Assembly (NCBI GenBank): GCA_040755835.1
Contig: JBFMAB010000122.1
Location: 107,180-146,503 of the forward strand
Source of the DNA: Myxococcota bacterium
GTDB lineage: Bacteria > Myxococcota > Myxococcia > Myxococcales > Myxococcaceae
DNA length: 39,324 nucleotides
Direction of reading: 5' to 3'
Shown: positions 2,581 to 24,860 of the stretch, piece after piece
Layout: each line of letters opens with the position of its first letter
How positions within the stretch are numbered: position 1 is the stretch's first letter
Translations under genes and position numbers: made by a program
The notes under the pieces: model-generated
What the model was told of the DNA's origin: nothing
Database searches by the model: none
Seen by the model: the letters and a program-made list of their open reading frames with translations, nothing else

Positions 2581-3015
2581 ATGAACCGAACCCTCCTTGG
2601 AGTGTCCCTGGCGGTGGCGATGGTGAGCGCGACGGCGGCCCGCGCGGATGACTGCGACGCGCCCTACGGGCGGTACCACGGCGCGGCGCCGGTGGTGGCG
2701 CAGCGGCCGCCTCCGATTCCCATCGTGGCGCCGCAGCAGAGTCCCCATGGCCGCTACGAATGGCGCGACGTGCAGCGCTGGGTGCCCGCGACGTCGACGC
2801 AGGTGTGGGTCGAAGGCCGCTGCGTCACCAGGCGCCACGGCCGGCGCGGCCGCTTCGAGCACACGCGCTGCACGCCCGGCCACTATGAGACCGTCACCAC
2901 GCCCGGCCGCTACGAGACGCGGCAGGAGTGGGTGTGGGTCGCGTTCCCGCCGCCGCCCGTCCGCTTCGGCGCGACGTTCGGCAACGGCGGCGGCTTCACG
3001 GTGACGATGCGCTGA
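2581..3015 (+). CDS. Small secreted hypothetical protein
   Basis: N-terminal signal peptide (MNRTLLGVSLAVAMVSATAARADD). 144 aa with two RYE-type repeats (GRYEWRD / GRYETRQEW). No homology recognised. Confidence 0.4.
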   Translation: MNRTLLGVSLAVAMVSATAARADDCDAPYGRYHGAAPVVAQRPPPIPIVAPQQSPHGRYEWRDVQRWVPATSTQVWVEGRCVTRRHGRRGRFEHTRCTPGHYETVTTPGRYETRQEWVWVAFPPPPVRFGATFGNGGGFTVTMR

Positions 3016-3149
3016 CCCCCGAGACCGCAGCGCGGCTTCAAGCGGGGGCTCCGGGCCGGTTCCGGGGCCCTCGTCGTTTTCCGCACTGGCGCGAGGCGCC
3101 CGGCTTCGAGCGCCGCTCCGGCGCGTTTTCGGGGTAGAACCTGAAGCCG

Positions 3150-5108
3150 GTGTCGGCGCCAACGCACAGGCCGGTCGTGGTGCTCCCTCCGGGGGGCCCG
3201 CTGCGCGCGCGGATCACCTCGCTGCTGGGCGCGGCGCAGGTGCCGGTGCTGGACGAGGCGCCGCACGACCTCGACGTCGCCATCATCGACCTGCAGGCGC
3301 CGGGGGCCCAGGCCGCCCGGGACGCGCTGCTCGAGGCCGCGCCGCGCGCCGCCATCTTCGGCGTGGCGCCGCCCGACCACCCGATGGACCCGGTGGTGCT
3401 CGAGGTCGTCGCGCCGTCCTCCCTCGACGCGGAGCTCGTGCCGCGCCTCGGCCACCTGCGCGCGCGCCTCGCGACGCTGAAAGAAGCGCAGCAACGCCAG
3501 CGCGACCTGAAGGTGCTGCTCGAGCTGACCGCCGCGTACGCCGAGGCCGCCGACGTCGACGAGCTGTTCCACGACGTCACCCGCCGCCTCGCCGAGGAGG
3601 TGCAGATCGACCGCGTGGCGCTCGTCGTCACCGACGCCGAGCGCGGGGAAGGCACCATCGTCGCGGCGAGCGATGACGCGGCGCTGAAGGATCTCCGCAT
3701 CGACCTCGCCCGCTACCCCGAGGTGCGCGAGGTGCTGCGCACCGGCAAGCCCGTCATCCTCGAGGACGCGCCGACGCATCCGATGCTCGAGGATGTGAAG
3801 GACGCCGTCTCGGCCCAGGGCATTCGCAACATCGCCGCGCTGCCGCTGGCGGTGCGCGGGCAGGTGGAAGGCGTGCTGCTCCTGCGCCGCACCACCGTGG
3901 GCGCCTTCAACCCGCGCGAAGTGGAGTTCCTCACGACCGCGGCGCACGCCACCGCCGTCGCGTTCCGCAACCTGACGCGCCTCGAGCGCGTGCGCGGGCA
4001 GCGCGAGAAGGAGAAGTCGGCCCGCATCGCCGCCGAGGAGCGCGCCGCCACCTTCAAGCGCTACCAGGCGTACTTCGACCACCTGTCCGACGGCGTGGCG
4101 ATTCTCGACAGCCGGGCGTGCGTCGTGTCGCTGAACCCCGCGGGCCTCAAGCTGCTCGACGTCGACGCGAAGCAGGCGGTGGGCCGGCACATCAACGCGC
4201 TCACCAACCCCACCGACGACGCACTGCTCATCGACGTCCTCTACTCGGTGTCGAAGGGGGAGGCGCGCGGCGACGTGGACCTGCACGTGCGCACGCTCGC
4301 GGGCCGGCGGTTGACGCTGTCGGTGTCGGCGGCGCCGATGGCGGGCGACACCGCGGGCGAAGGCGTGGCGGTGCTGACGTTGCGCGACGTGACGCGACAG
4401 CGCGCCATGGCCAAGGAGCTGCGGCAGACGACGGACTTCCTCGAGCGGCTCATCGACTCGTCGGTGGACGCGGTCATCGCCGCCGACCTGCGCGGCAACA
4501 TCATGCTGTTCAACAAGGCCGCCGAAGCCATCTGCGGCTACAGCGCCGCCGAGGTCATCGGGAAGCTGCACGTCACGCAGCTGTACCCGGAGGGCGTCGC
4601 GAAGGAGCTGATGGCGAAGCTCCGCAGCGGCGAGCACGGCGGCAAGGGCCGGCTCACGACCAGCCGCGTCGAGATTCTGAACCGCGCCGGCGAGAGAATC
4701 CCCGTCAACATGACCGCCAGCATCATCTACGAGGGCGCCCGGGAGACGGCGACGGTGGGCATCTTCACCGACCTGCGCGATCGGCTGAACCTCGAGCGGC
4801 GGCTCACCGACGCCGAGGCCCGGCTGCTCGAGAGCGAGAAGAACGCCGTCATCGTCGCGCTCGCCGGCACCGCCGCGCACGAGCTGAACCAGCCGCTCAC
4901 CTCGGTGATGGGCTACGCCGAGCTGCTCAAGCGGAAGATCAAGGACTCCGACCCGTCCTACCGGGCGGTCGACATCATCCACCGTGAGGCCGAGCGCATG
5001 GCGGAGATCGTGAAGAAGATCGGCAAGATCACCCGCTTCGAGACCAAGGCGTACGTGGGCTCGGCGCAGATCGTGGACCTCGACAAGGCGGCGGGTCATG
5101 AAGACTGA
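3150..5108 (+). CDS. Multidomain sensor: degenerate receiver-like N-terminus, GAF, two PAS domains and a HisKA (DHp) domain, with no HATPase_c catalytic domain
   Basis: GAF-like region (LAEEVQIDRVALVVTD...GVLLLRR), PAS regions, and an H-box (AAHELNQPLTSVMGYAELLKRK) followed by only about 60 aa. The N/G1/G2 ATPase boxes are absent. Confidence 0.7.
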   Translation: MSAPTHRPVVVLPPGGPLRARITSLLGAAQVPVLDEAPHDLDVAIIDLQAPGAQAARDALLEAAPRAAIFGVAPPDHPMDPVVLEVVAPSSLDAELVPRLGHLRARLATLKEAQQRQRDLKVLLELTAAYAEAADVDELFHDVTRRLAEEVQIDRVALVVTDAERGEGTIVAASDDAALKDLRIDLARYPEVREVLRTGKPVILEDAPTHPMLEDVKDAVSAQGIRNIAALPLAVRGQVEGVLLLRRTTVGAFNPREVEFLTTAAHATAVAFRNLTRLERVRGQREKEKSARIAAEERAATFKRYQAYFDHLSDGVAILDSRACVVSLNPAGLKLLDVDAKQAVGRHINALTNPTDDALLIDVLYSVSKGEARGDVDLHVRTLAGRRLTLSVSAAPMAGDTAGEGVAVLTLRDVTRQRAMAKELRQTTDFLERLIDSSVDAVIAADLRGNIMLFNKAAEAICGYSAAEVIGKLHVTQLYPEGVAKELMAKLRSGEHGGKGRLTTSRVEILNRAGERIPVNMTASIIYEGARETATVGIFTDLRDRLNLERRLTDAEARLLESEKNAVIVALAGTAAHELNQPLTSVMGYAELLKRKIKDSDPSYRAVDIIHREAERMAEIVKKIGKITRFETKAYVGSAQIVDLDKAAGHED

Positions 5109-7032
5109 CGCGCGCCAGCGCGCCTTCGGCGCATCGAGCCCCGCGGCCGACGCCTTCCAGGCCTTCTTCGACATGGTCGACGCGCCCGCCGCGCTGTGCG
5201 GCGTGGACCTGAAGATCGTCATCGCCAACCCGCCGTTCGAGGTGCTGTGCGGCGCGAAGGACCTCACCGGTCAGCTGGTCACGGATTACCTGTCGAGCGC
5301 CGCGCTGTGCGTGCCCGAGGACGGCCACACCCACGACGTCGAGGTCACCTGCAAGACGGGGCAGGAGGTCACGCTGACCGTCTCGCGCCGCGGCGAGACG
5401 GTGGCGGTGGTGGCGCGGCGCCTGTCGCCGATGCTGGACAGCCTCGCGGCCGCGGGCCGGGCGCTCATCGAGCAGGCGCGCGTCGAGAGCGAGCTCCTCG
5501 ACATCGGCCGGCACGTGGCCGGCGCCACCAGTGAGGAGGAGCTGGTCGCGACGGTGGCGCGCGGCGTGAAGAGCCTGTTTCCGCACCGCGCCTTCTGTGT
5601 GCGCATCGTCGACCCGCGCACCTGCGCGCTCACCTCGCTGTACGCCGAGGGGCGCCTGCGCGACGGCGCGCGCGACGTGTTCCACCTGCGCCGCTCGATG
5701 GTGGAGAAGACGCACCTCGACCCGCGCGGGCTGCCGGCGGAGCGGGTGAAGGTGACGTCGGGCGAGCTGCCGCTGCTCTTCCAGGGCAGCGTGCGCGGCA
5801 TCTCCGCGCCGCTGGTGGCGTCGGGGCAGTTCTTCGGCGCGGTGAACCTGGAGTACCCGCCGGGCCTCTCGGCCGACGTGCTGTCCGACGAGCGCATCGT
5901 CATCCAGCTCGCGAACCAGGTGGCGGTCGCGGTGCGCAACGCGAAGCTCATCGACGAGCTGACGTTCGTGCGGAAGTACCTCGAGGAGCTGCTCGAGAAC
6001 GCGAACGCGCTCATCCTCGTCGCCAACCGCGACGGCCGGGTGGTGGTCTTCAACGGCGCGCTGGTGAGGCTGACCGGCTACGGCAAGGCCGAGGTGTTGG
6101 GCACCGACGTGGCGAAGCTGGTGCCGGAGTCCGAGCGGTTGAAGCTCTTGCGCGTCCTGGACGCGTCGCTCAAGGGCGAGGCGGTGTCGGGCGTGGAGAC
6201 GGCGCTGCTCGGCCGCGACGGCCGGGAGATGCGCGTGGCCTTCGCCACCAGCGCGGTGACGAGCCAGTCCGGCGAGGTGGAAGGCGTCATCGCCATCGGG
6301 CAGGACCTGACGCGCATGCGCGAATTGGAGAAGCGCATCATCCAGGCGGAGAAGCTGGCGTCGCTGGGGCAGCTGGCCGCGAGCGTGGTGCATGAAATCA
6401 ACAACCCGATGACGGCCGTGGCCACGTACGCCGACGCGCTGCTGAAGCGCAGCCTCATGTCGCCGAACGCGGACCCGGCCGACGTCGACAAGTACAAGCG
6501 CATCGTCGACAACTCTGAGCGCGTGCTGCGCTTCACGCGCGACCTCGTCAGCTACGCACGGCCCGCGCAGGACAAGCCGGAAGAGGTCGAGGTCAACCAG
6601 GTGCTCGATCGCGCGGTGGGCTTCTGCGAGCACGTGTTGGTGAAGTACGGCGTCGCGCTCGAGCGCAACTACGGCCAGGTCGGCCCGTTCCTCGCGGTGA
6701 AGCAGAACCTGGTGCAGGTCTTCGTGAACCTCATCACCAACGCGTGTCACGCCACGCATGCCGGCGGGCGCATCACGTTGGCCACCACGAAGGTGGACGA
6801 CCACGTGCTGGTGACGGTGACGGACACCGGCTCGGGCATGGCGCCCGAGGTGCAGGCCCGCATCTTCGAGCCGTTTTTCACCACCAAGCCCGACGGCAAG
6901 GGCACGGGCCTCGGCCTGTCCATCGTGCAGGGCATCATCGAGAGCCACGGCGGCACCATCTCCGTGGAGAGCGCGCCGGGGAAGGGCACCACCTTCACCG
7001 TGAAGCTGCCGATGCTGCGCCGGCTGGGCTGA
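5098..7032 (+). CDS. PAS-GAF-PAS sensor histidine kinase (complete HisKA + HATPase_c)
   Basis: H-box (EKLASLGQLAASVVHEINNPMTAV), N-box (NLITNACHAT), G1/G2 (DTGSGMAPE...GTGLGLSIVQGIIESHGGTISVES). Its ATG overlaps the previous gene's stop (ATGAAGACTGA). Confidence 0.85.
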   Translation: MKTDARQRAFGASSPAADAFQAFFDMVDAPAALCGVDLKIVIANPPFEVLCGAKDLTGQLVTDYLSSAALCVPEDGHTHDVEVTCKTGQEVTLTVSRRGETVAVVARRLSPMLDSLAAAGRALIEQARVESELLDIGRHVAGATSEEELVATVARGVKSLFPHRAFCVRIVDPRTCALTSLYAEGRLRDGARDVFHLRRSMVEKTHLDPRGLPAERVKVTSGELPLLFQGSVRGISAPLVASGQFFGAVNLEYPPGLSADVLSDERIVIQLANQVAVAVRNAKLIDELTFVRKYLEELLENANALILVANRDGRVVVFNGALVRLTGYGKAEVLGTDVAKLVPESERLKLLRVLDASLKGEAVSGVETALLGRDGREMRVAFATSAVTSQSGEVEGVIAIGQDLTRMRELEKRIIQAEKLASLGQLAASVVHEINNPMTAVATYADALLKRSLMSPNADPADVDKYKRIVDNSERVLRFTRDLVSYARPAQDKPEEVEVNQVLDRAVGFCEHVLVKYGVALERNYGQVGPFLAVKQNLVQVFVNLITNACHATHAGGRITLATTKVDDHVLVTVTDTGSGMAPEVQARIFEPFFTTKPDGKGTGLGLSIVQGIIESHGGTISVESAPGKGTTFTVKLPMLRRLG

Positions 7033-7144: not shown

Positions 7145-7960
7145 CTATTCGGCGCCGTCGACTTCCTTCAGGAACTCCTCGCGCGAGATGAGCCCCTTGC
7201 GGGCCATGATGCGCATGAGCGCCCAGAATTTCCGCTCGAGCTTGGCGACCTCGTCCTCGTCGTCCGCGGCGCTGCCGAAGAGGAAGTCGAGGTCCTTCGA
7301 CACGCCGGCGCCGCCCTTCTTCTTCACCTGCGCCTGCGACTGCCGCTCGCTGATGAGCTGCTCGAGCGCCGGGTCGGGCGTGCCGGGGGGCAGCGGGTTC
7401 GACGCGGAGACGATTTCCTCGCCCATCACCGTCGGCGGCTCGTCCTCCGCGGGCTCGAGCCGCACCGAGCCGCTCGCCACGCTCACCGGCGCGCGCGCCC
7501 GCGCCTCGGCGTCGGACACCTTGTGGTAGTAGCGGAGGATCGCCGCGCGAATCTGCGAGTGCGTGGAGACGTAGGCCGCCACCTTGAGGCCGGTGGTGAA
7601 CTCGATCTCCTCCATCGCGCTCTGGTTGAGCGGGTCCGACAGCGCCACCATGAGCCGCTTGTTCGGCGTGCCCTTGCCCTCGATGGCGAAGGGGAACAGC
7701 TCGTGCTGCTCGCAGAAGCGCGCGCGGAGCATGTGCACCGCGGACCAGTCGACCGCCACCTGCGTCAGGTCCACCGTCGCGAGGCCCAGGGACTGCCCCA
7801 GCACCTGCGCGAGCATCACCTCGGTGATGACACCCTGCTGGATGAGCGTGATGCCCAGCCGCTGGCGCGTGCGCTTCTGCGCCAACAGCCCGGCCTCGAG
7901 CTGCGCCTGGGTGATCGCCCGTCGCTCGACCAGGAGCTCGCCAATTCGCTTCCGCGTCAT
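7145..7960 (-). CDS. MshEN / T2SS-E N-terminal domain protein (predicted c-di-GMP receptor domain) with a disordered acidic C-terminal region
   Basis: The N-terminus matches the GspE/MshE N-domain. The 24-residue RLGxxL(I/L)xxG(V/L)(I/L)xxxxLxxxLxxQ c-di-GMP-binding motif appears as RLGITLIQQGVITEVMLAQVLGQS. An ATG at 7960 is preceded by a GGGGG RBS; a GTG at 7978 is the alternative start. Confidence 0.7.
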   Translation of the reverse strand: MTRKRIGELLVERRAITQAQLEAGLLAQKRTRQRLGITLIQQGVITEVMLAQVLGQSLGLATVDLTQVAVDWSAVHMLRARFCEQHELFPFAIEGKGTPNKRLMVALSDPLNQSAMEEIEFTTGLKVAAYVSTHSQIRAAILRYYHKVSDAEARARAPVSVASGSVRLEPAEDEPPTVMGEEIVSASNPLPPGTPDPALEQLISERQSQAQVKKKGGAGVSKDLDFLFGSAADDEDEVAKLERKFWALMRIMARKGLISREEFLKEVDGAE

Positions 7961-8050
7961 CAGACCCCCGACTACCACGCGGCCTCTCGTGTAGGAAAAA
8001 TCAAGGACCTTTCGCCGCTTGTCGTGGTCCGTAATCCGAAGTCGGTTGCC

Positions 8051-8146: not shown

Positions 8147-8878
8147 ATGACGCTTGGACTTCTGAGCATTCTGGCGAGTGAGGCGGCCGAAGGTGGCGAG
8201 AGCGGGGGGCTGTTCGCCCGCATCGCCGAGTCGTGGAACGAGGGTGGCTGGGGTATGTACCCCATCGCCTTCTTCTTCGTGATCGGCATCGCCATCACCG
8301 TCGAGCGCATCATCGTGTTGTTCTTCTCGGCGGCCATCAACAAGGACGGCTTCCTCCGTGGCCTGAAGAAGCACATCTACGCGGGCGACCTGGACAAGGC
8401 GATCAACTACGTCGCGGGCCAGAAGCCCACGCCGCTCACCAACGTCATCAAGTCGGGCCTGATGAACGTCCCGAAGGGCGAGGAAGAAGTGCAGGCGGCG
8501 CTCGACGAGGCCAGCCTCCGCGAGAACCCGAAGCTCGAGGCGCGCACCGGTTACCTCGCGATGCTCGGTAACGCCGCGATGCTCGCCGGTCTGCTCGGCA
8601 CGGTCGACGGTCTGATCGGCTCCTTCAAGGCCGTGGCGCACGCGTCGCCTGCCGACCGCGCGACCATCCTCGCCGGCTCCATCGGCGAGGCCATGAACTG
8701 CACCCGCTTCGGCCTCATCGCCGCGATCCCGCTCCTCATCTTCTTCTCGGTCCTCAACGGCCGGACCCAGTCGCTCATCAACGACATCAACGAGACGTCG
8801 GTGTCGGTGCTGAACCTGGTCGTGCAGAACAAGGACAAGTTCAAGAACATGAGCGTCCCGGCCCAGGCCGAGGACTAA
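8147..8878 (+). CDS. MotA/TolQ/ExbB-family proton-channel protein (AglR/TolQ-like)
   Basis: Three transmembrane segments and the conserved C-terminal TolQ/ExbB block (GLLGTV...FGLIAAIPLLIFFSVLNGR). GGAGG RBS at 8132-8136. The internal ATG at 8147 was chosen over the long upstream ORF start. Confidence 0.85.
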   Translation: MTLGLLSILASEAAEGGESGGLFARIAESWNEGGWGMYPIAFFFVIGIAITVERIIVLFFSAAINKDGFLRGLKKHIYAGDLDKAINYVAGQKPTPLTNVIKSGLMNVPKGEEEVQAALDEASLRENPKLEARTGYLAMLGNAAMLAGLLGTVDGLIGSFKAVAHASPADRATILAGSIGEAMNCTRFGLIAAIPLLIFFSVLNGRTQSLINDINETSVSVLNLVVQNKDKFKNMSVPAQAED

Positions 8879-8981
8879 GCCGGTTCGAAGCGAAGGGTCC
8901 CGGTTGGACGGGTGGGGTGGAAACCTCGCCTGTCCAGCCACTGTCAGGTGACGTAAACGGCGCCCGAAGCGGGGAGCCGAG

Positions 8982-8999
8982 GGAGCGGGTGCCCGCTCC
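8982..8999 (+). promoter_or_regulatory. Perfect hairpin (GGAGCGGG/CCCGCTCC) immediately upstream of the first exbD/tolR-like RBS
   Basis: The palindrome ggagcgggtgcccgctcc ends 14 nt before the ATG at 9014 and abuts the GAGGAG RBS. Confidence 0.25.
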
Positions 9000-9013
9000 A
9001 CGAGGAGACGACG

Positions 9014-9499
9014 ATGGCCGGCGGTATGGACTTGGGTGGTGGTGGCGGCAAGGGCAAGAAGCCCCTCGACACGACCATCAACCTGGTGCCCTTCATCGAC
9101 CTCATGGCGGTCACGATCGTCTTCTTGATCATGACGGCCGTGTGGACGCAGCTGGGCCGCCTCCAGGTGTCGCAGTCGGGGCAGAACGCGTCGGAAGAGC
9201 AGCCGCAGGACCCGAACCAGCTTCAGCCGGTGACGCTGCTCATCACCGAGAAGGAGCTCAAGCTGTCGGTCGGCGGCGCGCAGCTCGAGCCGATCCCCAT
9301 TACGCGTGACGACAAGCAGCGCGTGGACGTGGCGCGGCTCATCGACAAGCTCAAGGAGCTGAAGACGCAGCAGCCTGAGCAGAACGCCATCACCGTCTCG
9401 ACCGAAGACAACGTGAGGTACGAAGACCTGGTGCGGGTCATCGACACGTGCATCGGCGGCCAGTTCCCCTCCGTGTCGGTTTCGCCGGCTTCGTCGTAA
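9014..9499 (+). CDS. ExbD/TolR-family protein (AglQ/TolR-like)
   Basis: 161 aa. A single N-terminal TM plus the ExbD signature (INLVPFIDLMAVTIVFLIM) and a periplasmic domain. Confidence 0.8.
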   Translation: MAGGMDLGGGGGKGKKPLDTTINLVPFIDLMAVTIVFLIMTAVWTQLGRLQVSQSGQNASEEQPQDPNQLQPVTLLITEKELKLSVGGAQLEPIPITRDDKQRVDVARLIDKLKELKTQQPEQNAITVSTEDNVRYEDLVRVIDTCIGGQFPSVSVSPASS

Positions 9500-9527
9500 G
9501 CGGCAACGAAAGCGAGTTCACAAGACC

Positions 9528-10112
9528 ATGGCCATCATCACGCCAGGCAAGCGGTTCGGTAAGCGGCTGATGCACTCGAAGATCTTCGGCCACCACGCCA
9601 TGTTGGGGAAGAAGTCCGTCTTCTCCGACCTGAACGTGACGCCGCTGGTCGACATGTTCGTCATCCTCGTGCTCTTCCTCATCGCCAACTTCTCGGCGAC
9701 GGGTGAAATCCTCGCGATGTCGAAGGACATCCAGCTGCCCGAGGCGGCGAACACCGACGAGCTGCAGCTCGCGCCGGTCGTGCAGGTGTCGACGGAGTCG
9801 GTCATCGTGTCCGGCATCATGATTGGCCGGGTCGACGACCTGACCCGCGAGGACTACCTCAACATCCCCGCGCTCGAGGAGAAGCTGCGCGAGATGAAGA
9901 AGGAGTTCGAGGATCTGCACAACGCGGCCAACGACTCCGGCGCCTTCAAGGGCGACGTGAACATCCAGGCGGACAAGCAGGTGCAGTTCCGCATCATCAA
10001 GCGCGTGATGTTCAGCTGCGCCTCGGCCGGCTACGGCAACATCGCCTTCGCGACGATGGCTGCGGGCAGCGAAAACGGTGCGAAGAAGGAAGAGACCGCG
10101 TCCCGCGACTGA
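9528..10112 (+). CDS. ExbD/TolR-family protein, second paralog (AglS/TolR-like)
   Basis: 194 aa. ExbD signature (LNVTPLVDMFVILVLFLIANF). Same strand, 28 nt downstream of the previous gene. Confidence 0.8.
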   Translation: MAIITPGKRFGKRLMHSKIFGHHAMLGKKSVFSDLNVTPLVDMFVILVLFLIANFSATGEILAMSKDIQLPEAANTDELQLAPVVQVSTESVIVSGIMIGRVDDLTREDYLNIPALEEKLREMKKEFEDLHNAANDSGAFKGDVNIQADKQVQFRIIKRVMFSCASAGYGNIAFATMAAGSENGAKKEETASRD

Positions 10113-10221: not shown

Positions 10222-10545
10222 ATGCTCGCCCTCACCCTGTCCGTGCTGTTGTCCGCAGCGCCCGCGCAGCTCACCATCGAGGTGCAGCCCGAGGGCTGCG
10301 TGGTGAAGGTGGACGGGAAGAAGGCCGGCACCGGGGCGAAGCCCTTCACGGTGAAACTCAAGCCCGGGAAGCACACCATTCGCGTCGAATACAGGGGTGA
10401 CGCCACCACCGAGGAGCTGGCGCTGAAGGCGGGCGAGAAGAAGACGTGGAAGTGGGAGTTCACCGGCGTTTCGCCGGAGCCCCAGAAGGAGGAGGCCGAG
10501 AAGGCCGAGGCCGGCCCGGCCGGCGAGGTGGCCCCGTCGCCTTGA
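10222..10545 (+). CDS. Small secreted PEGA-domain-like protein
   Basis: Signal peptide, then a PEGA-like beta motif (IEVQPEGCVVKVDGKKAGTGAKPFTVKLKPGKHTIRVE) and a Lys/Glu-rich tail. Confidence 0.5.
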   Translation: MLALTLSVLLSAAPAQLTIEVQPEGCVVKVDGKKAGTGAKPFTVKLKPGKHTIRVEYRGDATTEELALKAGEKKTWKWEFTGVSPEPQKEEAEKAEAGPAGEVAPSP

Positions 10546-10605
10546 GGGCTCGTCGAGTCGCTCGACCCTCGGGGCTGCGCTAACCTTCACGTCCGGTGCA
10601 CCGCG

Positions 10606-11313
10606 ATGCCGAATGACCCGGACGATCCGAAGAACTCGTCAGCCGTGGCCGACCTCTTCCCGTTCGACGAGCTGTCGACGGGTGAGACGTCGTCGCTGCT
10701 CAAGCGCGCGAAGCTGGTGACGGGCTTCCAGGACGACCCGACGCCCGAAGTCGACCCGACGCTCAAGCCCACCACCGGCCGCTTCCTCGCGCTCAAGGCC
10801 GCCGCCGACTCGTCGCGGCCGGCCACCGGCGCGCACGCGGCGCTCAAGCCGTCGGCGCCCCTGCCGCCGCGGCCGGGAGGCACCGGCTCGATGCCCGCCT
10901 TCAAGCCGGGCACGACGTCCAGCCAGCCGGCCTTCAACCCGTCGGCGCCGAGGCCGGGCCAGCCCGCGTACCACCCGTCAGCGCCGAGGCCCGGCACGTC
11001 GAGCCAGCCCGCGTACCACCCGTCAGCGCCGCGCGCGGGCACCTCGAGCCAGCCGGCCTTCAACCCGTCGGCCCCGCGGCCACGCCCCAGTACCGGCGCG
11101 CACGCGGCGCTCGACCCGGACGCGCTGCAGCGGGAGATCCGCGCGCGTGCCCGCCACGACGCCGCCGTCGCGCCGCCTCCCGGCGCGAAGCCCGGCCGCC
11201 CGGTGAAGCCGCCGCTGGCCGCCGAGGACACCTTCGTGAAGAAGAAAATCCGCCAGGCGGAGAACAACCTGCCCGACTGGGACTTCGACACCGACGACGA
11301 GGACGCCGGCTGA
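10606..11313 (+). CDS. Pro/Ser-rich low-complexity protein with tandem 14-15-aa repeats (SSQPA[F/Y][N/H]PSAPRPG) and an acidic C-terminus
   Basis: ORF with consistent codon bias, four tandem imperfect repeats, and a C-terminal DWDFDTDDEDAG. No TM segment or signal peptide. Confidence 0.5.
   Translation: MPNDPDDPKNSSAVADLFPFDELSTGETSSLLKRAKLVTGFQDDPTPEVDPTLKPTTGRFLALKAAADSSRPATGAHAALKPSAPLPPRPGGTGSMPAFKPGTTSSQPAFNPSAPRPGQPAYHPSAPRPGTSSQPAYHPSAPRAGTSSQPAFNPSAPRPRPSTGAHAALDPDALQREIRARARHDAAVAPPPGAKPGRPVKPPLAAEDTFVKKKIRQAENNLPDWDFDTDDEDAG
10891..11092 (+). repeat. Tandem 42-45-bp coding repeat, about 4 copies
   Basis: The unit agccagccSgcSttcaacccgtcRgcgccgMgSccSggcacStcg repeats with few substitutions inside the Pro-rich gene. 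Confidence 0.6.
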
Positions 11314-11330
11314 AACGCGCGCCGCCCGCC

Positions 11331-11993
11331 GTGACGAGCCTCTCCCCAGGACCGGGCCAGCCACTCAAGCCAGGCGAGCTGCGCGAGGTGCTGGGCGCCT
11401 TCGTCCTCGCCGAGGCCCGCGAGCCGGGCGAGGTGGCCGTCACCCTGGGCCCGAGGGAGCGCGCGCTGCTCGCGGACATGCCCTGGCCGGTGCGGCGCGC
11501 CGAGTGGCTCGCCGGGCGACGCGTCGCCAAGCGCCTGCTGGAGCGCGCCTTCCAGCTGGCGCCCGGGCGCGTCGAGGTGCTGCCGCTCGAGTCCGGCGCG
11601 CCGCGCGTCTTCGTCGACGGCGAGGCGCGGGCCGACCTGGTGCTGAACCTCTCGCACACCCGCGGCTGGGCCGTGGCCGCCGCGTCCACCGCCGCCGTGG
11701 GCATCGACGCCTGCGACGACGCCGACGGGCCGCGCCTCGAGCGCATCGGCCGGCGCGTCTTCTCCGAAGGCGAGGCCGAGGGCTGCGGCGCGCACGCGAG
11801 CGCCCGCACCCAGGCCGCCGTCTGGGCGCTCAAGGAGGCGGGCCTCAAGCTGCGCATCGGCGGCATCTTCGACCCCGGCGCCCGCAGCATCCGCGTGGTG
11901 TCGCTGGAGCCGGCCCGCATCGCCGACCCGTCGGTGCAGGTGGCGCTCTTGCGCCTGCCCAGCGCCGCCGTCGCCGTCGCCCGCGAGGCCTGA
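11331..11993 (+). CDS. Sfp-type 4'-phosphopantetheinyl transferase
   Basis: PPTase motifs GIDACD (the Mg-binding GxD) and WALKEAGLK (W/FxxKEAxxK). 220 aa. Confidence 0.75.
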   Translation: MTSLSPGPGQPLKPGELREVLGAFVLAEAREPGEVAVTLGPRERALLADMPWPVRRAEWLAGRRVAKRLLERAFQLAPGRVEVLPLESGAPRVFVDGEARADLVLNLSHTRGWAVAAASTAAVGIDACDDADGPRLERIGRRVFSEGEAEGCGAHASARTQAAVWALKEAGLKLRIGGIFDPGARSIRVVSLEPARIADPSVQVALLRLPSAAVAVAREA

Positions 11994-12270
11994 GGCGCCC
12001 GGCCACCTTCGTGGCGCTCGACAGCATCCAGAAGGCCTTCCCCGGCGAGGGCAAGCCCTTCACCTGCGACAACCGGCGCAGGCCACCGGCGCGTACCAGC
12101 GCGCGCCGGTGACGCCGTCGCGCTTCGACCGCGTGGCGCGAAGCTGACGCGAAGGCGCGCACCGACGGCGAGAAGAAGGGCCTCGAAACCTTCGTCGCCG
12201 CGGGCTGCACGGCGCGCCACCTGCCGACGCCCACGCCCGCGCCCGACGCTGGGCCCGGGGAAGCCGGCGC
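11994..12270 (+). pseudogene. Decayed fragment of a di-haem cytochrome c peroxidase (CCP/MauG family) gene
   Basis: Across two frames it reads ...YQRAPVTPSRFDRVA | ADAKARTDGEKKGLETFVAAGCTARH. These match the CCP blocks FExTLxTPxSPFDRYL and TxxEKRGLxLFxxxGCxxCH. The haem CxxCH motif is mutated to CTARH (TGC to CGC). There is a frameshift and stop near 12135-12150. The N-terminal two thirds and the distal part are missing. Confidence 0.35.
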
Positions 12271-12410
12271 CCGGCCTCGAGGGACGACGGGCGCGCGGAC
12301 CGGGACGACGCCGAAGCCGGACCCGACGTCAGGCGGCGCCCGGGAACGCGAGCGCCTCACCGGGCCTGCGCCTGGGGAGGCTTCTTCGTTTCACAGCGCG
12401 AGCAGGCGCT

Positions 12411-13634
12411 TCAGCGCACGAGCTCGCGCGCCTGCGCCACCTTCTCCCCGTTGGGGAAGCGCTTCAGGTAGTCGGCGGCGACCTTCTTCGCCTCGGCCTT
12501 CCGCTTGCTGCGCACCAGCACGTCCAGCCAGCGGCCCATGGCCTCGGGCGCGGTGTCGGCGTTGGGCGCCTCCTTCACGGCCTGGGAGAACCACCTCACC
12601 GCCTGCTGGTCGTCGTGCTCGACGTTGGCCGCGAGGTCGCCCAGGCGAATGGCGGCGGCCACGGCGGCGTCGCTGCCGGGGAAGCGCTCGCGCACCTGCA
12701 GCCACGCCTCGCGGGCGTACGCGGGGTGGCGCGCCTTCTTCGCGGTGTCGCCGAGCAGCAGCACGTCGCTCTTCGGGAGCGAGCGGGTGAGCCAGCTGAA
12801 GCCGGCCTCGTCCGCGGCTTGGATGGCGCCGACCGCGTCGCCGGTGTCGGCGAGGTAACGCCACGACGGGCCCTGGGCCTTCGGCCGCTCCGGCGCGGCC
12901 TGCGGCGTGCGCTTCTCGGACAGCACGCGCACCACCGGCGGCGACGTCTGCGGCGCGCGCTCGGCCTCGGCCACCGCGGGCGGCGTCTCGAGGTACAGCG
13001 AGGCGCGCGGCGGGTTGGAGAAGGCCTCCAGCTTCTGCCGCGAGGTGACGCGCTGCTTCGACAGCCCCGGGCCGTCGACCTCGACGATGCCCTCCTCCAT
13101 CTCCACCTCGATGCCGCCCGCCTCCGGGTTCCACCGCAGCTCGAACTTCGTGCCCACCACGGCGACGCGGTACGGGCCGGCGTGGAAGTTCCAGCGCGTC
13201 TGCTTGTCGCGGTGCACCACCGCCACGTGCGCGGCGCCCTTCTCGAGCAGCACATCGGCGCCGTGGGCCGTCACCTTCGTCACGCGGATCTGCGAGTCCT
13301 TGCGGAGCAGCACCTCGGTGCCGTCGCTGAAGTCGATGGCTTCGTCGCCGGCCTGCGCGAGGACAAACTCGCCAGACGAGCCGGGCTGGCCGCGCACGGT
13401 GAGGCTGAGCGGCGTCTCGGGCCACACCACGAAGGCCACCACCGCCGCGGCGGCGGCCGCCGACAGCACGGGCACCACGAAGCGCCACATCGACGGCGCC
13501 GGCGTGTCGACGCCGTGCAGCTTCTCGGCGAAGCGCGCGCGCGCCCTCGCCAGCACGGCCTGGTCACTCGCCGGACCGGCGTTCTGCCCCTGCCGCTCCA
13601 GCGCCTCGGTGTACTTGTCGCTGAAATCCTTCAT
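12411..13634 (-). CDS. FecR-domain anti-sigma factor with a C-terminal TPR-like region
   Basis: Start MKDFSDKYTEAL overlaps the sigma stop (TCATGA at 13631-13636). One TM (FVVPVLSAAAAAAVVAFVVW). FecR-like beta region (VGTKFELRWNPEAGGIEVEMEEGIVEV). Helical C-terminus. The longer upstream ORF start was rejected. Confidence 0.7.
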   Translation of the reverse strand: MKDFSDKYTEALERQGQNAGPASDQAVLARARARFAEKLHGVDTPAPSMWRFVVPVLSAAAAAAVVAFVVWPETPLSLTVRGQPGSSGEFVLAQAGDEAIDFSDGTEVLLRKDSQIRVTKVTAHGADVLLEKGAAHVAVVHRDKQTRWNFHAGPYRVAVVGTKFELRWNPEAGGIEVEMEEGIVEVDGPGLSKQRVTSRQKLEAFSNPPRASLYLETPPAVAEAERAPQTSPPVVRVLSEKRTPQAAPERPKAQGPSWRYLADTGDAVGAIQAADEAGFSWLTRSLPKSDVLLLGDTAKKARHPAYAREAWLQVRERFPGSDAAVAAAIRLGDLAANVEHDDQQAVRWFSQAVKEAPNADTAPEAMGRWLDVLVRSKRKAEAKKVAADYLKRFPNGEKVAQARELVR

Positions 13635-14317
13635 GACCCGAAGGACCTCCCTTCCGCGAGCCAGGCGCGAATCTCCGGTTCCCGCTGCACCAGCTCGTTG
13701 AACTCGGCTTCCGCCTTCCAGATGCGGCGCTTCGCCGTCGACAGCGACACGCCTACCGTCTCGGCCACCTCGGTCAGCTCCAGGCCTTCGAAGTAGCGGA
13801 GCGTGAAGCACAGTCTCTCGTCGACGCCCAGGCGGTCCAGCACCGCCTTCACGCGCCTCAGCACGAGGCGTTCCTGCACCGCGTCGGACGTGGTGAGCGC
13901 CGGCAGGCCGCTCGTTTCGAGCGCCTCGTCGTTGCCCTCGTCGCCGCCGCCCAGCGGCAGCCACTTCCGCCAGCGGCGCTTCTTGAGCATCGAGCGCGCG
14001 GTGAAGACGGTGAGGCTGCGCAGCCAGGGCTTCAGCTTGTCGGCCTCGCGCACGCGGCCCACGCCCTCGAGCGCGCGGGAGAAGACTTCCTGCACCATGT
14101 CTTCGAGCTCGCCGTCCGCGCCCATCACCCGGCGCAGCACCGACAGCACGTAGGGCGCGAAGCGATCGTAGAAGGCGAGCCACGCCCCGGGCCGGCGCGC
14201 GCGCAAGGCCTCGAGCAGCCGCTCGTCGCTCCCCGCAAAGGCCACCGACGGCGTCGGTCTGGTCATCGCAGCATCCACGCAGGCCCCCAGTCTCCCGGGG
14301 AATCTCCCGCGGTTCAT
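13631..14317 (-). CDS. ECF (sigma-70 family, group IV) RNA polymerase sigma factor
   Basis: Region 2 (DMVQEVFSRAL...) and a region-4 helix-turn-helix (FEGLELTEVAETVGVSLSTAKRRIWKAE). The alternative start is MTRPT at 14266. Confidence 0.8.
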   Translation of the reverse strand: MNRGRFPGRLGACVDAAMTRPTPSVAFAGSDERLLEALRARRPGAWLAFYDRFAPYVLSVLRRVMGADGELEDMVQEVFSRALEGVGRVREADKLKPWLRSLTVFTARSMLKKRRWRKWLPLGGGDEGNDEALETSGLPALTTSDAVQERLVLRRVKAVLDRLGVDERLCFTLRYFEGLELTEVAETVGVSLSTAKRRIWKAEAEFNELVQREPEIRAWLAEGRSFGS

Positions 14318-14428
14318 CCCGTGAAAAATCAGGCAGTTATCAAGCGTGACCGGCTGATTTCGTGGATCAGCGGGCCCGCCCCTGGGGTGTGTCCGGCCGC
14401 GCAGGTGTCCTGAGGGGGTCGCCGCGGT

Positions 14429-15763
14429 TCATCCGAGGCGGAAGCGGCGGATGACGGCCTGGAGCTCTTCGGACAGGGTGGTGAGTTCCTGGGCGGACGC
14501 GGTCATCTGGCCGACGGCCTGGGATTGCTCCTCGATGACGCGCTTGATGGCCTCGGTGGCCAGGGCGTTCTCGCGGGCGACGCCGGAGATGTCGGTGATG
14601 GCCTGCACCATGGCCTGGCTGGATTGCTGCTGGGCCTGCGCGGCGGTGGAGATGTGGGCCACCTTGTCGGCGCCGTCCCTGGCGGAGTCGGAGATGGCGG
14701 CCATCGAGCGCACGATGAGCGAGAGGTCCTCGCGGCCCTGCGCGAGCTCTTCGATGCCCTCCTTCATCGCGGTGACGACGTGCACCGACTGGCCGGAGAT
14801 GTCGCGGGCGAGGCGGCTGATGGCCTCGGCGGACTTGCCGGCGGACTCGGCCAGCTTGCGCACCTCGTCGGCGACGACGGCGAAGCCGCGGCCGTACTCA
14901 CCGGCGCGCGCGGCCTCGATGGTGGCGTTGAGCGCGAGGAGGTTCGTCTGCTGCGCGACCTGGGTGATGGCGTCGACGATCTTGGAGATCTCCTGCGTCT
15001 TCTCGCCGAACTTGAAGACCTCCTGGCTGGCGGTCTCGATGCGGCTGAACACCTTGCGCACCTTCTCGCCGGCGAGTCGCGCGGCGGTGCTGCCTTCTTC
15101 AGCGGACTGCGAGGTGGCGGCAGCGGCCTTGGTCGACTCCTCGGCGGAGCGGGCGGTGCGCTGCAGCACCTCGGCCATCTCGGTGATGGTGCCCTTCGCG
15201 CGCGCCACCAGCGAGGACTGCGCCTCGGCGCCCGCGGCGATGCGCTTCATCGACTCGCCGATCTCGGAGGCCTGCGCGTTGACGCCGGTGGCCGATGCCT
15301 CGAGGCCGGTGGCCGCGTCGGCGACGGCTTCCGCGGTGTGTTGGATGGAGGACACCAGCTCGCGCAGGTTCTCCTGCATGTCGTCGATGGCGACGGCGAG
15401 CTCGTCGATGTCGTCGCGCACGCTGGACGCGTCGAGCTGCACGCGCCGCGAGAGGTCGCCGCGCGAAATCTCAAGCGCCGTCTGCGACAGCTGCTGCACG
15501 CGCGCGACGCGCAACAGCAGCCACGGCAGGGTCACCGCGAGGATGAGCGTCACCAGGAAGGCCGCGATGATTTTCAGCGCCCAGTCCCACGCGTTGCCCA
15601 CGTAGAAGACGCCCACCAGGGCGGTGGCCAGTACCACGTAGCCGGCGAGGATCTTCAAATGCAGCGACACCTGCGCCCGCCGCACGTCCCCCTGCCGCAC
15701 GACGCGCTCCACCGGCTGCCGCCTCGACAGCCCACCAGCCGCCACGTCGGAGGGTCTGCGCAC
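14429..15763 (-). CDS. Methyl-accepting chemotaxis protein (two TMs, HAMP, MCP signalling domain)
   Basis: Two N-terminal TM helices, HAMP, and the highly conserved MCP signalling core ([34 protein letters not shown]). Confidence 0.85.
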
Positions 15764-15975
15764 GAGGGGGAGATTTAGCCCCAGACGCCCCCGCCCTCCA
15801 GTTTGCTCCGGCTGTTGCCAGGCCGGGCTTCAGGAGCGCAAGGCGCCGCGCGCGCGGGCGAAGCTGCACGTCGCGTCCGAGGCAGCCTGAGTCCACAGGC
15901 CTGTCGCACCTGCACCCACCGCCCGAGAAGAACGCGACGCGCCGGGGCGGGCGTGTAGACTCGCAGCGGTTTCGC

Positions 15976-18009
15976 GTGGCCACGCCCAGCTTCATCGCCC
16001 CGACCAGTCCGCTCGATCGGCGGCGGCTCGGGAAGTATGAGGTGCTGTGCCGTCTGTCGACGGGCGGCATGAGCGAGATCTACCTCGCGCACCAGACGGG
16101 CCTGGCGGGCTTCAACAAGTTGGTGGTGCTGAAGACCATTCTCCCCGACATCGGCGGGGAAGAAGACTTCGTGCGCATGTTCCTCGACGAGGCCCGCACG
16201 ACGGCGGCCTTCAACCACCCGAACATCGCGCAGGTGTACGAGCTGGACACGGACGACGGCCAGCTCTTCATGGCGATGGAGTTCGTCCAGGGTTGCACGC
16301 TGGTGGAGATGGCGCGGGCCTGCCGCGCGGCGCGCGAGGCGATCCCCATCGGCTTCACGCTGGCGGCGGTGCGTGACACCGCGCTGGCGCTCCACTACGC
16401 GCACACCTTCACCGACGCGCGCGGCCGCAAGCAGATCGTCATCCACCGCGACGTCGCCGAGAAGAACATCATGGTGACGTACGAGGGCGTCACCAAGCTG
16501 CTGGACTTCGGCATCGCCAAGGCGCTGGGGCGCTCGGGCCGCACCGGCGTGGGCATGGTGAAGGGGACGAGCGGCTACATGTCCCCCGAGCAGATCCGCG
16601 GCGAGCCGCTCGACGGGCGCAGCGACATCTTCGCGTTGGGGGTGGTGGCCCACGAGTGCCTCACCGGCCTGCGGCTCTTCCACGGCAAGTCGCCCGAGGA
16701 AGGGATGATGGCGGCGCTCAAGGAGAACGTCGTCCCGCCGTCGAGGTGGAACCCGCAGGTGCCGCCGGCGGTGGACGCGGTCGTGCTCAAGGCGCTGCAG
16801 CGCGATCGCGAAGCGCGCTTCGCCACGGCCCTGGAGTTCGCGCGCGAAATCGACCGCGTCGGCCACGGGCTCATCTGGCACCCGGAGCAGAGCGGCGAGC
16901 TGGTGCTGAAGTACTTCAACGACCGCCGTGCCGAGACGCGCCGGTTGCTCGAGTCGTCCGTCAACCAGGAGGTGACCGGCGAGATCCGGGTGAAGTCCAT
17001 CATCCAGAAGGTGCGCGCCACCGCGTCGACGCCGGGCACGGACGCTCCGAAACCCGAGCAGGCCACGCCCGCGCCCACCCCCGTCATCAGCGCGGCGCTG
17101 CGGCGCCCGACGCAGAACATGCCGCCGGCGACGCAGGGCACGGCGCCGAACATCAACCCTGTCACGCTGCGGCAGCCCGACCCGACCACCTCGCCGGCGC
17201 GCCCGAAGGTGCTGCGCGCCGACCCGCCGCCGGCCCCCGCGCCGCGCGCCATCGACCTGACGCCGCGGGCGAGCGAGTTCGACGACGACGAGGCCGACGC
17301 GAAGACGATTCCCGCGGCGGCGCTGCCCGACGAGGTCCGCGAGCTCCGCAAGCGCATGCTGGAGGCCGCTCAGGCGAAGAAGGCCTCGCCCACCGGCACC
17401 ACCACGCCCGTCGCTGCGTCGGTGCGAACGAGCCGTCCGGACACCAGCTCCATCACCGAGCCCACGCCCGTGCAGCCGCCGGCGCCGGTGGTGGCCTCCG
17501 CCGCCCGCGCCAACCTCGCCACGGAGCCGGAGCGCCGGCCGGTGCTGCCGGTGACGGACGCGAGCCCGGCGCTCAAGGTGCCACCGCGCGACACCGACGG
17601 CGACACGCTCAGCATCACCAACCGCGGGTCGCCGCCCACCGACTGGGACGACGACGACGTGGGCGCGCGCACCACCATCGCCCGCCCCGACGAGGTGCTG
17701 GGGCAGATCAAGAAGCAGCAGTCCGACGACGACCTCCGCGCGACGCAGGAGCGCGAGCCCTCGTCGGTGTACCTGCGCGAGGTGCGCTGGCGGAGCCGCG
17801 CGTTGATGGTGGTGCTGGTGGCGATGGCGCTGCTCGCCGTCGTGGGCATCCTGGTGCTGCTGGAGGTCATCCCCCTGGGCGCCGCCGACGAGCCGCAGGC
17901 GGAAGCAATACCCGCCGTCGTCCAACCCACGGCAGACACCGCGGCCGAGGCGCCGCCCGAGCCGCTGCCCGACGTCCCCGCGCCCACACCCGCGCCGAAC
18001 AAGAGGTAG
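15976..18009 (+). CDS. Hanks-type Ser/Thr protein kinase with a Pro-rich linker and a C-terminal TM segment
   Basis: Kinase subdomains: VLK (Lys), HRD catalytic loop (HRDVAEKN), DFG, SPE. Long Pro/Ala-rich region. TM (ALMVVLVAMALLAVVGILVLL). Confidence 0.85.
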   Translation: MATPSFIAPTSPLDRRRLGKYEVLCRLSTGGMSEIYLAHQTGLAGFNKLVVLKTILPDIGGEEDFVRMFLDEARTTAAFNHPNIAQVYELDTDDGQLFMAMEFVQGCTLVEMARACRAAREAIPIGFTLAAVRDTALALHYAHTFTDARGRKQIVIHRDVAEKNIMVTYEGVTKLLDFGIAKALGRSGRTGVGMVKGTSGYMSPEQIRGEPLDGRSDIFALGVVAHECLTGLRLFHGKSPEEGMMAALKENVVPPSRWNPQVPPAVDAVVLKALQRDREARFATALEFAREIDRVGHGLIWHPEQSGELVLKYFNDRRAETRRLLESSVNQEVTGEIRVKSIIQKVRATASTPGTDAPKPEQATPAPTPVISAALRRPTQNMPPATQGTAPNINPVTLRQPDPTTSPARPKVLRADPPPAPAPRAIDLTPRASEFDDDEADAKTIPAAALPDEVRELRKRMLEAAQAKKASPTGTTTPVAASVRTSRPDTSSITEPTPVQPPAPVVASAARANLATEPERRPVLPVTDASPALKVPPRDTDGDTLSITNRGSPPTDWDDDDVGARTTIARPDEVLGQIKKQQSDDDLRATQEREPSSVYLREVRWRSRALMVVLVAMALLAVVGILVLLEVIPLGAADEPQAEAIPAVVQPTADTAAEAPPEPLPDVPAPTPAPNKR

Positions 18010-18337
18010 CGCGAAAGTCCTCCCCGCGCCTGAAGCCCCGAGCCACGCGTTGCTCGCGCCCGGGGGTCCGCGGCCGAGCGACGAGCGCTGCGGGCCGCCG
18101 GGGAGCGGCGCCACCACCTCGCCCATGCCCCCGACGTGCAGTGGCTGACGGCCGGCGTGCGGCGGTGAGGGCGGGTACGGACCACACGTGCGCGCCGGGG
18201 CTCGAACCTCTCCGGGCAGAGCGCCAGGGGCGGCACCGGCACCGCGGTGCCCGGGCCGACGGACGGCGCCCGGGCGCTTCGCGTCCTTCGGGGCGGAGAG
18301 GAGCGACCGCACGGGCGCCGCGCGGCACGACGCGCCC

Positions 18338-18899: not shown

Positions 18900-18976
18900 T
18901 GACGCGCGCCACCGCGTCGGTCTTCCTCCGCCTGGCCGTCGTCCTGCCCGAAGGTGTGCAAGGTTTACCCCGGTCC

Positions 18977-20196: not shown

Positions 20197-20203
20197 TCCG
20201 CCG

Positions 20204-20692: not shown

Positions 20693-20728
20693 GCGTTCGC
20701 GGACGGCGAGGCTAGCAGCACCGCCAAT

Positions 20729-22720: not shown

Positions 22721-22900
22721 GCGCGGCCTTGTGTCGGAGTGACCCGCCCGGCGCCAGCCAGCGCGCGCAGAACCGTCGGAGGCGTCGGGAATCGCGCGGG
22801 CGTGGGCGCGTGGGCTTGCGTGCGCGCGGTGACTCGGGCCAGATGCGCGTCCGTCCGCGGGCGGCCGGCGCCTGCGCGTCTTGTTTCCCGGGGAGTCGCC

Positions 22901-24058: not shown

Positions 24059-24096
24059 GGGGTGGCGGCGCGTGCCCGACGCGCCCGCCTCAGGCT

Positions 24097-24795: not shown

Positions 24796-24860
24796 GGGTC
24801 TGGCCTCCGGTCGCGGGGCGGATTACCACCATTCCCTCGGCATGCGAAACGAGGGCTGTC

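Follow-up and report, generated by a model that had tools for sequence, protein, structure and literature searches.

Two overlapping genes on the + strand of a 39,324-nucleotide stretch from a Myxococcota bacterium (GenBank contig JBFMAB010000122.1; the whole 39-kb stretch analysed, with a G+C content of 72%, is called the window) encode P1, a GAF/PAS sensor protein which ends in a dimerization and histidine phosphotransfer (DHp) bundle, and P2, a histidine kinase. The pair is a genuine sensor module of two genes, conserved and under selection, and belongs to a general class that is known but mechanistically unexplored. P1 and P2 very probably act as functional partners. The proposed mechanism is that the two translationally coupled proteins would form a complex, and that the single ATP-binding domain of P2 would phosphorylate its own His432 and, in trans, His577 of P1. 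The result would be a device with two DHp bundles and one catalytic domain, in which each bundle is gated by its own GAF/PAS array and could either phosphorylate or dephosphorylate an unlinked response regulator. A conserved C-terminal tail of P1 may dock the partner. Trans-phosphorylation of His577 by the ATP-binding domain of P2 is the favoured mechanism, with a probability of about 40%.

Domain composition of P1 and P2

Pfam assigns a GAF domain, two PAS domains and a HisKA domain to P1, as proposed in a preliminary description of the locus. The phospho-acceptor His577 (codon 4878-4880) is inside the motif AAHELNQPLT. The same description stated that P1 is without ATP-binding boxes, and this is confirmed: HATPase_c has no Pfam match in P1 even at an E value of 0.1, and none of the best 120 homologues (62-95% identity, nearly all 620-660 residues long, range 543-666) contains the domain. 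The full-length AlphaFold model (mean predicted local distance difference test, pLDDT, of 80) consists of a strand/helix domain at residues 9-87, the GAF domain, a long coiled coil, two PAS domains, a helical hairpin (helices 542-596 and 602-629) and a low-confidence tail (631-652), and shows no ATPase-like fold. Since each stretch of the protein already belongs to a domain, there is no room for HATPase_c. A cryptic ATPase domain, on whose absence the preliminary description had staked its claim, is therefore ruled out by both Pfam and the full-length model.

A separate model of P1 residues 545-652, built with 120 homologous fragments, results in the same hairpin (pLDDT above 90) and a tail whose pLDDT is below 50. 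The alignment for this model came from a search with the 108-residue DHp-tail segment, which yielded short metagenomic fragments only and is unsuited to counting fused versus split forms. The hairpin resembles the DHp of ZraS, FixL chimeras, CpxA, ERS1, LvrB and GacS/RetS in Foldseek and phmmer searches. P1 was thought to continue for about 60 residues beyond its DHp, but helix 2 of the AlphaFold model spans residues 602-629 and only about 24 residues follow. Of the features of a Class I histidine kinase, P1 has the DHp/HisKA domain with the H-box histidine and lacks HATPase_c with its N, G1, F and G2 boxes. P1 does not fit the definition of a histidine kinase because it is without the catalytic domain; it is a nonenzymatic histidine kinase-like protein ("HisKA, no HATPase") and should not be filed as a kinase.

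P2 has both Class I features, the HisKA H-box and HATPase_c. Its His432 (codon 6391-6393) is within VVHEINNPM, and the N, G1, F and G2 boxes are intact in the translation (NLITNACHA, DTGSGM, FEPFFTTK and GTGLGLS). The layout first proposed for P2 was PAS-GAF-PAS followed by HisKA and HATPase_c. Pfam recovers HisKA, HATPase_c, the second PAS domain and a weak GAF domain, but the N-terminal PAS domain is undetected. The pair was also described as a split sensor; P2 is a complete kinase, so the pair is not literally split. The best NCBIfam scores are 110 bits against a cut-off of 646 (AtoS) for P1, and 270 against 646 (AtoS) and 219 against 1200 (EspC) for P2, which also matches EspA. Because these matches are only partial and far below the cut-offs, both proteins are outside of the named families AtoS, EspA, EspC, FixL and CckA.

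Conservation and selection of the gene pair

Both open reading frames (ORFs) have a strong third-position GC bias. The junction reads GGT CAT GAA GAC TGA, in which the ATG of P2 (5098-5100) precedes the TGA of P1 (5106-5108) in the +1 frame. The stop of P1 had been reported to overlap the start of P2, and the sequence gives this overlap a length of 11 nt (ATGAAGACTGA). The overlap is a translational coupling of the two genes. Since natural P1-P2 fusions exist, a programmed +1 frameshift that yields a P1-P2 fusion was considered, but dropped because there is no slippery motif at the junction. The conserved nucleotides of the junction are accounted for by the coding of AxHE(E/D) before the stop of P1 and of MK at the start of P2.

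A locus scan limited to one genome per species gave 68 relatives, every one of them from metagenome-assembled Myxococcota or "Deltaproteobacteria". Four probes (the DHp domains of P1 and P2, the ATPase domain of P2, and CheY) were run against the ORFs of these loci. A P1-type DHp is present in 65 loci: 50 have a P2-like DHp and ATPase gene directly downstream, three have the 5' part of such a gene at the end of the contig, 10 are stand-alone and two are not judgeable. A P2-like kinase thus directly follows the P1-like gene in 53 of the 63 informative loci, which span the Archangium-like clade, Kofleriaceae, Polyangiaceae, Sandaracinaceae, Haliangiales and Nannocystineae. Co-occurrence of the pair in related genomes, suggested earlier as a check, is therefore the rule. 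The 11-nt overlap recurs in 22 close loci as ATGAAGAnTGA, with ATGACGAGTrA in three. In almost all other paired loci the genes overlap by 4 nt (ATGA, GTGA or TTGA) or by 1 nt, or are no more than 18 nt apart. At one junction (L041) the choice of start codon decides between an overlap of 35 nt and a gap of 37 nt.

In comparisons with the two nearest relatives (dS ~0.4), the ratio of nonsynonymous to synonymous substitution rates (dN/dS) is 0.12-0.13 for P1 and 0.20 for P2. P1 is under purifying selection. In a search of 1.84 billion cluster representatives, of which the best 150 (50% identity clusters) were examined, a P1-type DHp was found in 144; nearly all have HELNQPL, and the exceptions have HQLNQPL or HELSQPL. 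All family members seen are from metagenomes or metagenome-assembled genomes (MAGs), with none from a cultured species. An Ignavibacteria MAG (L069, 1180-2160) has a DHp-only ORF of 180 residues followed after 4 nt by an ATPase-only ORF of 146 residues; this ORF pair is a DHp|ATPase split in the literal sense, or else a frameshift.

Natural fusions of P1 and P2

At least 10 cluster representatives are single P1-P2 polypeptides of 927-1641 residues (P0126, P0133, P0134, P0139, P0140, P0144, P0178, P0196, P0217 and P0243), and several of these fusions recur in independent assemblies. They begin with a P1-like part that contains the DHp and the tail motif, followed by PAS/GAF domains, a second DHp of the P2 type and one ATPase domain. 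Pfam analysis of five fusions resulted in two HisKA and one HATPase_c domain in each. In P0140 the two DHp domains are separated by a proline-rich linker of only about 25 residues. Since the order of the parts in the fusions is the order of the genes, the fusions are Rosetta-stone evidence for joint action of P1 and P2. The preliminary description held that fusion of the two ORFs would count against the pair. Fusions do occur in other lineages, yet they support the partnership.

Three fusions are on long contigs with anaerobe-type neighbours. P0133, P0134 and P0196 (L070, 3906-10344; L072, 4058-10896; L073, 4094-10878) are located directly after LarB-like (AIRC) and LarC-like (Ni_insertion) genes. 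Two of these three loci also have a CheW-CheY-CheA-CheC-CheD cluster upstream of the fused kinase.

Conserved tail and sensor spacing of P1

Conservation in P1 is by far the highest over its last 90 residues. The mean identity between the window P1 and 74 distant representatives is 16% in the N-terminal domain, 33% in GAF, 27% in PAS1 and 50% in PAS2, and it is 70% in DHp helix 1, 65% in helix 2 and 62% in the tail. The near-invariant signature AAHELNQPLT ... ERMAEIV(K/R)KIG.IT.YET..YVG...I.DLD is found in 66 loci and 121 fragments. The histidine, the next glutamate and the entire H-box are invariant in P1-type members with an intact receiver, with a degenerate receiver and in fused form. P1 aligns with the full-length kinase models PhoR, WalK, CreC, PnpS and VanS through residue 644-646, and by eye its tail (FETKAYVGSAQIVDLDKAAGHED) matches the stretch of P2 from DHp helix 2 to the first strand and helical turn of the ATPase domain. 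The tail is thus a strongly constrained relic of the junction between the DHp and a lost ATPase domain.

A sub-clade of P1-like proteins (L025, L027, L031 and L053; P0132, P0201 and P0255) has the tail variant RYG..TDMIDL, beyond which there are 135-290 further low-complexity residues rich in proline and alanine. No P2-like gene is downstream in L025, L031 and L053, and the contig of L027 ends too soon to judge.

The spacing between sensor and histidine is also fixed. The distance from the PAS DLR motif of P1 (residue 541, window 4770) to His577 (4880) is 36 residues, which is the same in 139 of 141 P1-type proteins. In P2 the distance from the PAS DLT motif (residue 403, window 6304) to His432 (6393) is 29 residues, as it is in 28 of 30 P2-type proteins. 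The difference between the two spacings is exactly one heptad. Heptad periodicity in PAS kinases has reportedly been seen in work on engineered FixL chimeras. The fixed 36-residue spacing suggests that the P1 bundle is still under the control of its sensors and mechanically coupled to them, as in real PAS kinases.

Table 1. Positions of the P1 and P2 genes, their overlap and their domains in the window.
Feature	Position	Strand	Description and evidence
P1 gene	3150-5108	+	652 aa, GTG start; ORF call and translation, Pfam, AlphaFold
P1 degenerate receiver (residues 1-125)	3150-3524	+	hhalign, alignment, AlphaFold
P1 GAF (residues 135-271)	3552-3962	+	Pfam 4.2e-16
P1 PAS 1 (residues 309-418)	4074-4403	+	Pfam PAS_4
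P1 PAS 2 (residues 430-541)	4437-4772	+	Pfam PAS 9.6e-23
P1 signalling helix and DHp hairpin (residues 542-629)	4773-5036	+	Pfam HisKA 571-624, 1.6e-13
P1 C-terminal tail (residues 630-652)	5037-5105	+	conservation, AlphaFold
P1/P2 overlap	5098-5108	+	11 nt; P2 start codon to P1 stop codon
P2 gene	5098-7032	+	644 aa, ATG start; complete soluble sensor histidine kinase
P2 sensor region, weak GAF (144-279) and PAS (295-403)	5527-6306	+	Pfam; GAF E 0.005, below cut-off
P2 DHp (residues 423-489)	6364-6564	+	Pfam HisKA 1.3e-8
P2 ATP-binding domain (residues 536-639)	6703-7014	+	Pfam HATPase_c 4.3e-32

Receiver ancestry of the P1 N-terminus

The N-terminus of P1 was described as degenerate and receiver-like, and the comparison with canonical receivers of family members bears this out (hhalign probability 94.9%, E 4e-8 for the window clade). 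Residues 9-87 are alternating strands and helices in the AlphaFold model, with a pLDDT of ~88-91. The pseudo-receiver retains the equivalent of Asp57 (VAIID47LQ), and the DD pair, Thr87 and Lys109 are replaced. An N-terminal CheY match is present in about 20 cluster representatives and in the Polyangiaceae loci L028, L029, L035 and L039. In three of the representatives (P0135, P0141 and P0154) the Pfam Response_reg match is 1e-24 to 1e-27 and none of the DD pair, acceptor Asp, Thr and Lys is missing. The pocket that defines a response regulator (Asp with the DD pair, Thr/Ser and Lys) is therefore complete in these three proteins and incomplete in the window P1. The receiver-intact relatives and the hhalign match show that P1 descends from a REC-GAF-PAS-PAS-HisKA protein (REC, receiver), whose receiver decayed to a pseudo-receiver in the lineage of the window. 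This descent was missed in the preliminary description. By the usual convention, the receiver-intact relatives are formally a response-regulator-type partner next to a kinase.

Proposed mechanism and alternatives

Trans-phosphorylation of His577 is favoured because an isolated DHp can serve as the substrate of a separate ATP-binding domain, as in EnvZ and CheA3/CheA4, and because the H-box of P1 is invariant regardless of the state of the receiver or of fusion. The conservation of the ATPase-junction relic also favours it, as does the translational coupling, which suggests a fixed stoichiometry. Several points weigh against this mechanism. P2 has its own histidine and so would not need P1 in order to signal, and the 10 stand-alone P1-like genes indicate that the partnership is not obligatory in cis. 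An invariant H-box is expected equally of a phosphatase or a phosphotransferase. In the receiver-intact relatives, the kinase could phosphorylate the receiver of P1 instead. The tail is unstructured in the AlphaFold monomer, so its docking role is a guess. A more specific form of the mechanism, in which P1/P2 and the fusions would be a two-DHp, one-ATPase kinase whose tail (YET-x-YVG-xxx-I-x-DLD) recruits the ATP-binding domain of the partner, is only tentatively put forward.

A close rival, only somewhat less probable, is that P1 is instead a dedicated phosphatase or phosphate sink for a regulator phosphorylated by P2. Kinase and phosphatase would then be on two separately sensed proteins in fixed proportion, and switch-like responses would be possible. 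A DHp of the HisKA type carries phosphatase activity without the need of an ATP-binding domain. In the phosphatase motif of HisKA proteins, the residue at His+4 is Thr or Asn, and Gln is typical of the FixL/DctB subfamily; P1 has Gln at this position (HELNQ), which may argue against a phosphatase. Such a role has been proposed for "HisKA, no HATPase" proteins by Galperin et al. (PMC5847659), and the modelling of Amin et al. shows that separated activities result in ultrasensitivity (PMC3591291). Compared by eye, the helix 1 positions that face the regulator are alike in both bundles (PLTSVMGYAELL versus PMTAVATYADAL), but helix 2 is very different between P1 and P2, which may argue against a shared regulator. 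The strict spacing between sensor and DHp fits a regulated phosphatase as well as a phospho-acceptor. However, the absolute invariance of the His and Glu in more than 140 clusters is not required of a pure phosphatase.

P1 is unlikely to be a phosphorelay intermediate, in which the phosphoryl group would pass from P2 to the receiver of P1, then to His577 (as in Spo0B/ChpT) and from there to a terminal regulator. A canonical N-terminal receiver (DD, D, T and K) is found in many members of the family, and the receiver-intact loci L028, L029 and L035 also have a P2-like kinase next to the P1-like gene with an ATGA overlap, which is the arrangement of a classic kinase-regulator gene pair. A fused Spo0F-Spo0B would also look like a receiver with an ATPase-less DHp. 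The relay is attractive for these receiver-intact relatives. In the window clade and most fusions, however, the receiver is without the metal-binding DD pair, Thr and Lys, and the H-box is still invariant. Since the receiver pocket is degenerate, a relay is not a plausible mechanism at the window locus. In addition, the receiver and the DHp are some 450 residues of sensor domains apart.

A role as a modulator similar to RetS is also improbable. P1 would in that case form a mixed DHp bundle with P2 and block or tune its autophosphorylation without phosphate chemistry of its own. Hetero-association between two DHp domains has a precedent in RetS-GacS (PDB 7n0e, which is among the fold matches of P1; PMC5992135). 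P1 and P2 both have PAS, coiled-coil and DHp parts in the same heptad phase, and translational coupling suits a stoichiometric complex. A pure blocker, however, would not need an invariant His-Glu and H-box, and the two DHp domains are only ~27% identical. The linkers differ by a full heptad, which would place the PAS domains of a mixed dimer out of register.

Single-polypeptide versions in other lineages make a fused gene conceivable, but it is hardly credible that the pair is an artefact or a decay product (a frameshift in one long kinase gene, or a pseudogene of a duplicated kinase), since the same stop, 11-nt overlap and lengths occur in 22 independent genomes, the split state occurs in at least 50, the dN/dS of P1 is low and its tail is among the most conserved segments. 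The conserved stop and overlap, together with the dN/dS, exclude a frameshift, assembly error or pseudogene. The earlier rejection of a frameshifted single kinase thus stands on the conserved ATPase-less state, the overlap and the dN/dS; its own argument, a 60-residue extension beyond the DHp, fails with the tail of ~24 residues.

Comparison with known systems

HisKA proteins without HATPase are about 3.7% of the HisKA proteins in SMART (PMC3591291), and P2CS has a category of "possible incomplete histidine kinases". Galperin et al. (2018) refer to "nonenzymatic HK-like proteins" and list the REC-(PAS/GAF)n-HisKA architecture as apparently archaea-specific and of unknown function (PMC5847659). 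P1 resembles the "HisKA, no HATPase" class in its N-terminal PAS/GAF domains, its C-terminal HisKA with a conserved histidine and its lack of HATPase. The described proteins of this class have no known partner, whereas P1 has an overlapping gene for a complete kinase and natural fusions to it. The ancestral form of P1 shares the layout of the archaeal proteins. Unlike them, the P1 family is large, bacterial (Myxococcota and relatives) and has its own conserved tail.

In Rhodobacter sphaeroides, CheA3 has a histidine and no kinase domain and is phosphorylated by CheA4; CheA3 is also a phosphatase (PMC3591291). P1 is similar to CheA3 in that it has a phosphorylatable histidine and no kinase domain. 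The histidine of CheA3, however, belongs to the CheA P1/Hpt class and that of the P1 protein to a DHp, and no chemotaxis scaffold is involved in P1/P2. CheA4 is without an acceptor histidine of its own, whereas P2 keeps His432. The pair is therefore not a strict split kinase of the CheA3/CheA4 type, since P2 carries both the H-box with His432 and an intact ATPase domain. The isolated DHp of EnvZ (domain A) is phosphorylated in trans by domain B and keeps its phosphotransfer and phosphatase activities, according to the account of this work cited in PMC3591291. The EnvZ split was engineered in vitro from one kinase, whereas P1 and P2 are natural proteins, each with its own sensors.

Spo0B and ChpT are four-helix-bundle histidine carriers between a kinase and a terminal regulator and have no kinase activity. 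They retain a degenerate ATPase-like domain, have no sensor domains and are divergent in sequence. P1, in contrast, combines a typical HisKA H-box with three sensor domains and is without an ATPase-like domain. Its bundle is followed by ~24 disordered residues and its sequence matches an ordinary kinase DHp, which sets it apart from the Spo0B/ChpT type.

RetS and GacS of Pseudomonas aeruginosa are two sensors that communicate directly via their DHp regions (PMC5992135; PDB 7n0e). Unlike P1 and P2, they are hybrid kinases of the membrane encoded at unlinked loci, and both contain an ATPase domain. To our knowledge, there is no translational coupling or fusion of RetS and GacS. RedE of M. xanthus ("kinase-like") has HATPase_c, unlike P1. 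A 2026 preprint on incomplete kinases covers only the opposite case, HATPase without HisKA. The literature searched for tandem-DHp kinases or HisKA-only partners contained general mentions of incomplete kinases only. The P1 family, its tail motif, its coupling to a complete kinase and the fusions with two HisKA and one HATPase domain appear to be undescribed. Occurrence in metagenomes and MAGs only may explain this silence.

Genes surrounding the pair

No receiver gene is found anywhere in the 39-kb window by CheY-seeded phmmer or Pfam, in agreement with the earlier statement that no response regulator is adjacent. The CheY probe of the extracted ORFs found no conserved response regulator beside the pair across the loci examined. 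The closest genome relative (L002, 92% identity) has a stand-alone receiver gene (2918-3469, -) divergent from the P1 gene, which is not kept across the other loci. Synteny between the window and L002 breaks at ~3110, and an amidase gene (827-2509, -) is upstream of P1 in the window instead. A gene at 2581-3015 (+) encodes a 144-residue protein with a signal peptide, repeated GRYE motifs and no Pfam match; in about 20 Archangium-like loci this gene is conserved immediately before P1. A weak terminator-like hairpin (3053-3070) is located between this gene and P1.

Downstream of the pair are a gene for an MshEN-domain protein (7145-7978, -), which is convergent with P2, and an ExbB-ExbD-ExbD cluster (~8150-10112, +). 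Both follow the pair in the Archangium-like loci with a long enough flank, except that L020 is without an MshEN match. The ExbB-ExbD-ExbD trio also follows the stand-alone P1-like gene of a Vulgatibacter MAG (L060, 5753-7704). These genes were considered as a functional clue, but are treated as lineage synteny since they are confined to the Myxococcia-type clade, to which Vulgatibacter belongs, and are absent in Polyangia. About 14 kb of the window (10222-24800) separates the ExbD genes from VTT and LON-substrate-binding genes, which are adjacent to them in the Archangium locus L001. This block encodes a PEGA protein, a phosphopantetheinyl transferase, FecR with an extracytoplasmic function (ECF) sigma factor, a chemoreceptor, a Ser/Thr kinase, a pseudouridine synthase, DoxX, an FHA protein and an ORF of ~1100 residues with a weak match to the metallo-beta-lactamase fold.

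Two other loci (L058, 1760-4346; L059, 1833-5826) have a stand-alone P1-like gene followed by an overlapping ORF of ~100 residues without a Pfam match. In these two and in L067 (2940-4670), a gene for a large protein with a phosphoribulokinase/uridine-kinase (PRK) domain follows, with RNase J in between in L059.

Significance

HisKA proteins without an ATPase domain are a few percent of all HisKA proteins and are regularly annotated as kinases in error; a mechanism has been demonstrated for essentially none of them (PMC3591291, PMC5847659). The P1/P2 family is a clean test case since it is large, strongly selected and uniform in build. The probable partner of P1 is identified by the gene overlap and the natural fusions, and the tail is short and conserved, which makes it amenable to deletion or mutation. 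For genome annotation, P1-type proteins should not be named histidine kinases. The family also extends to bacteria the REC-(PAS/GAF)n-HisKA architecture, which was earlier thought to be archaeal.

The P1/P2 module is not yet a new principle. Whether P1 is trans-phosphorylated or is a phosphatase arm, the answer would show how kinase-less sensors join two-component networks and how two sensor arrays combine on one catalytic domain. If the reading with two DHp bundles and one ATPase domain is true, thousands of "HisKA, no HATPase" proteins may borrow the catalytic domain of a neighbour.

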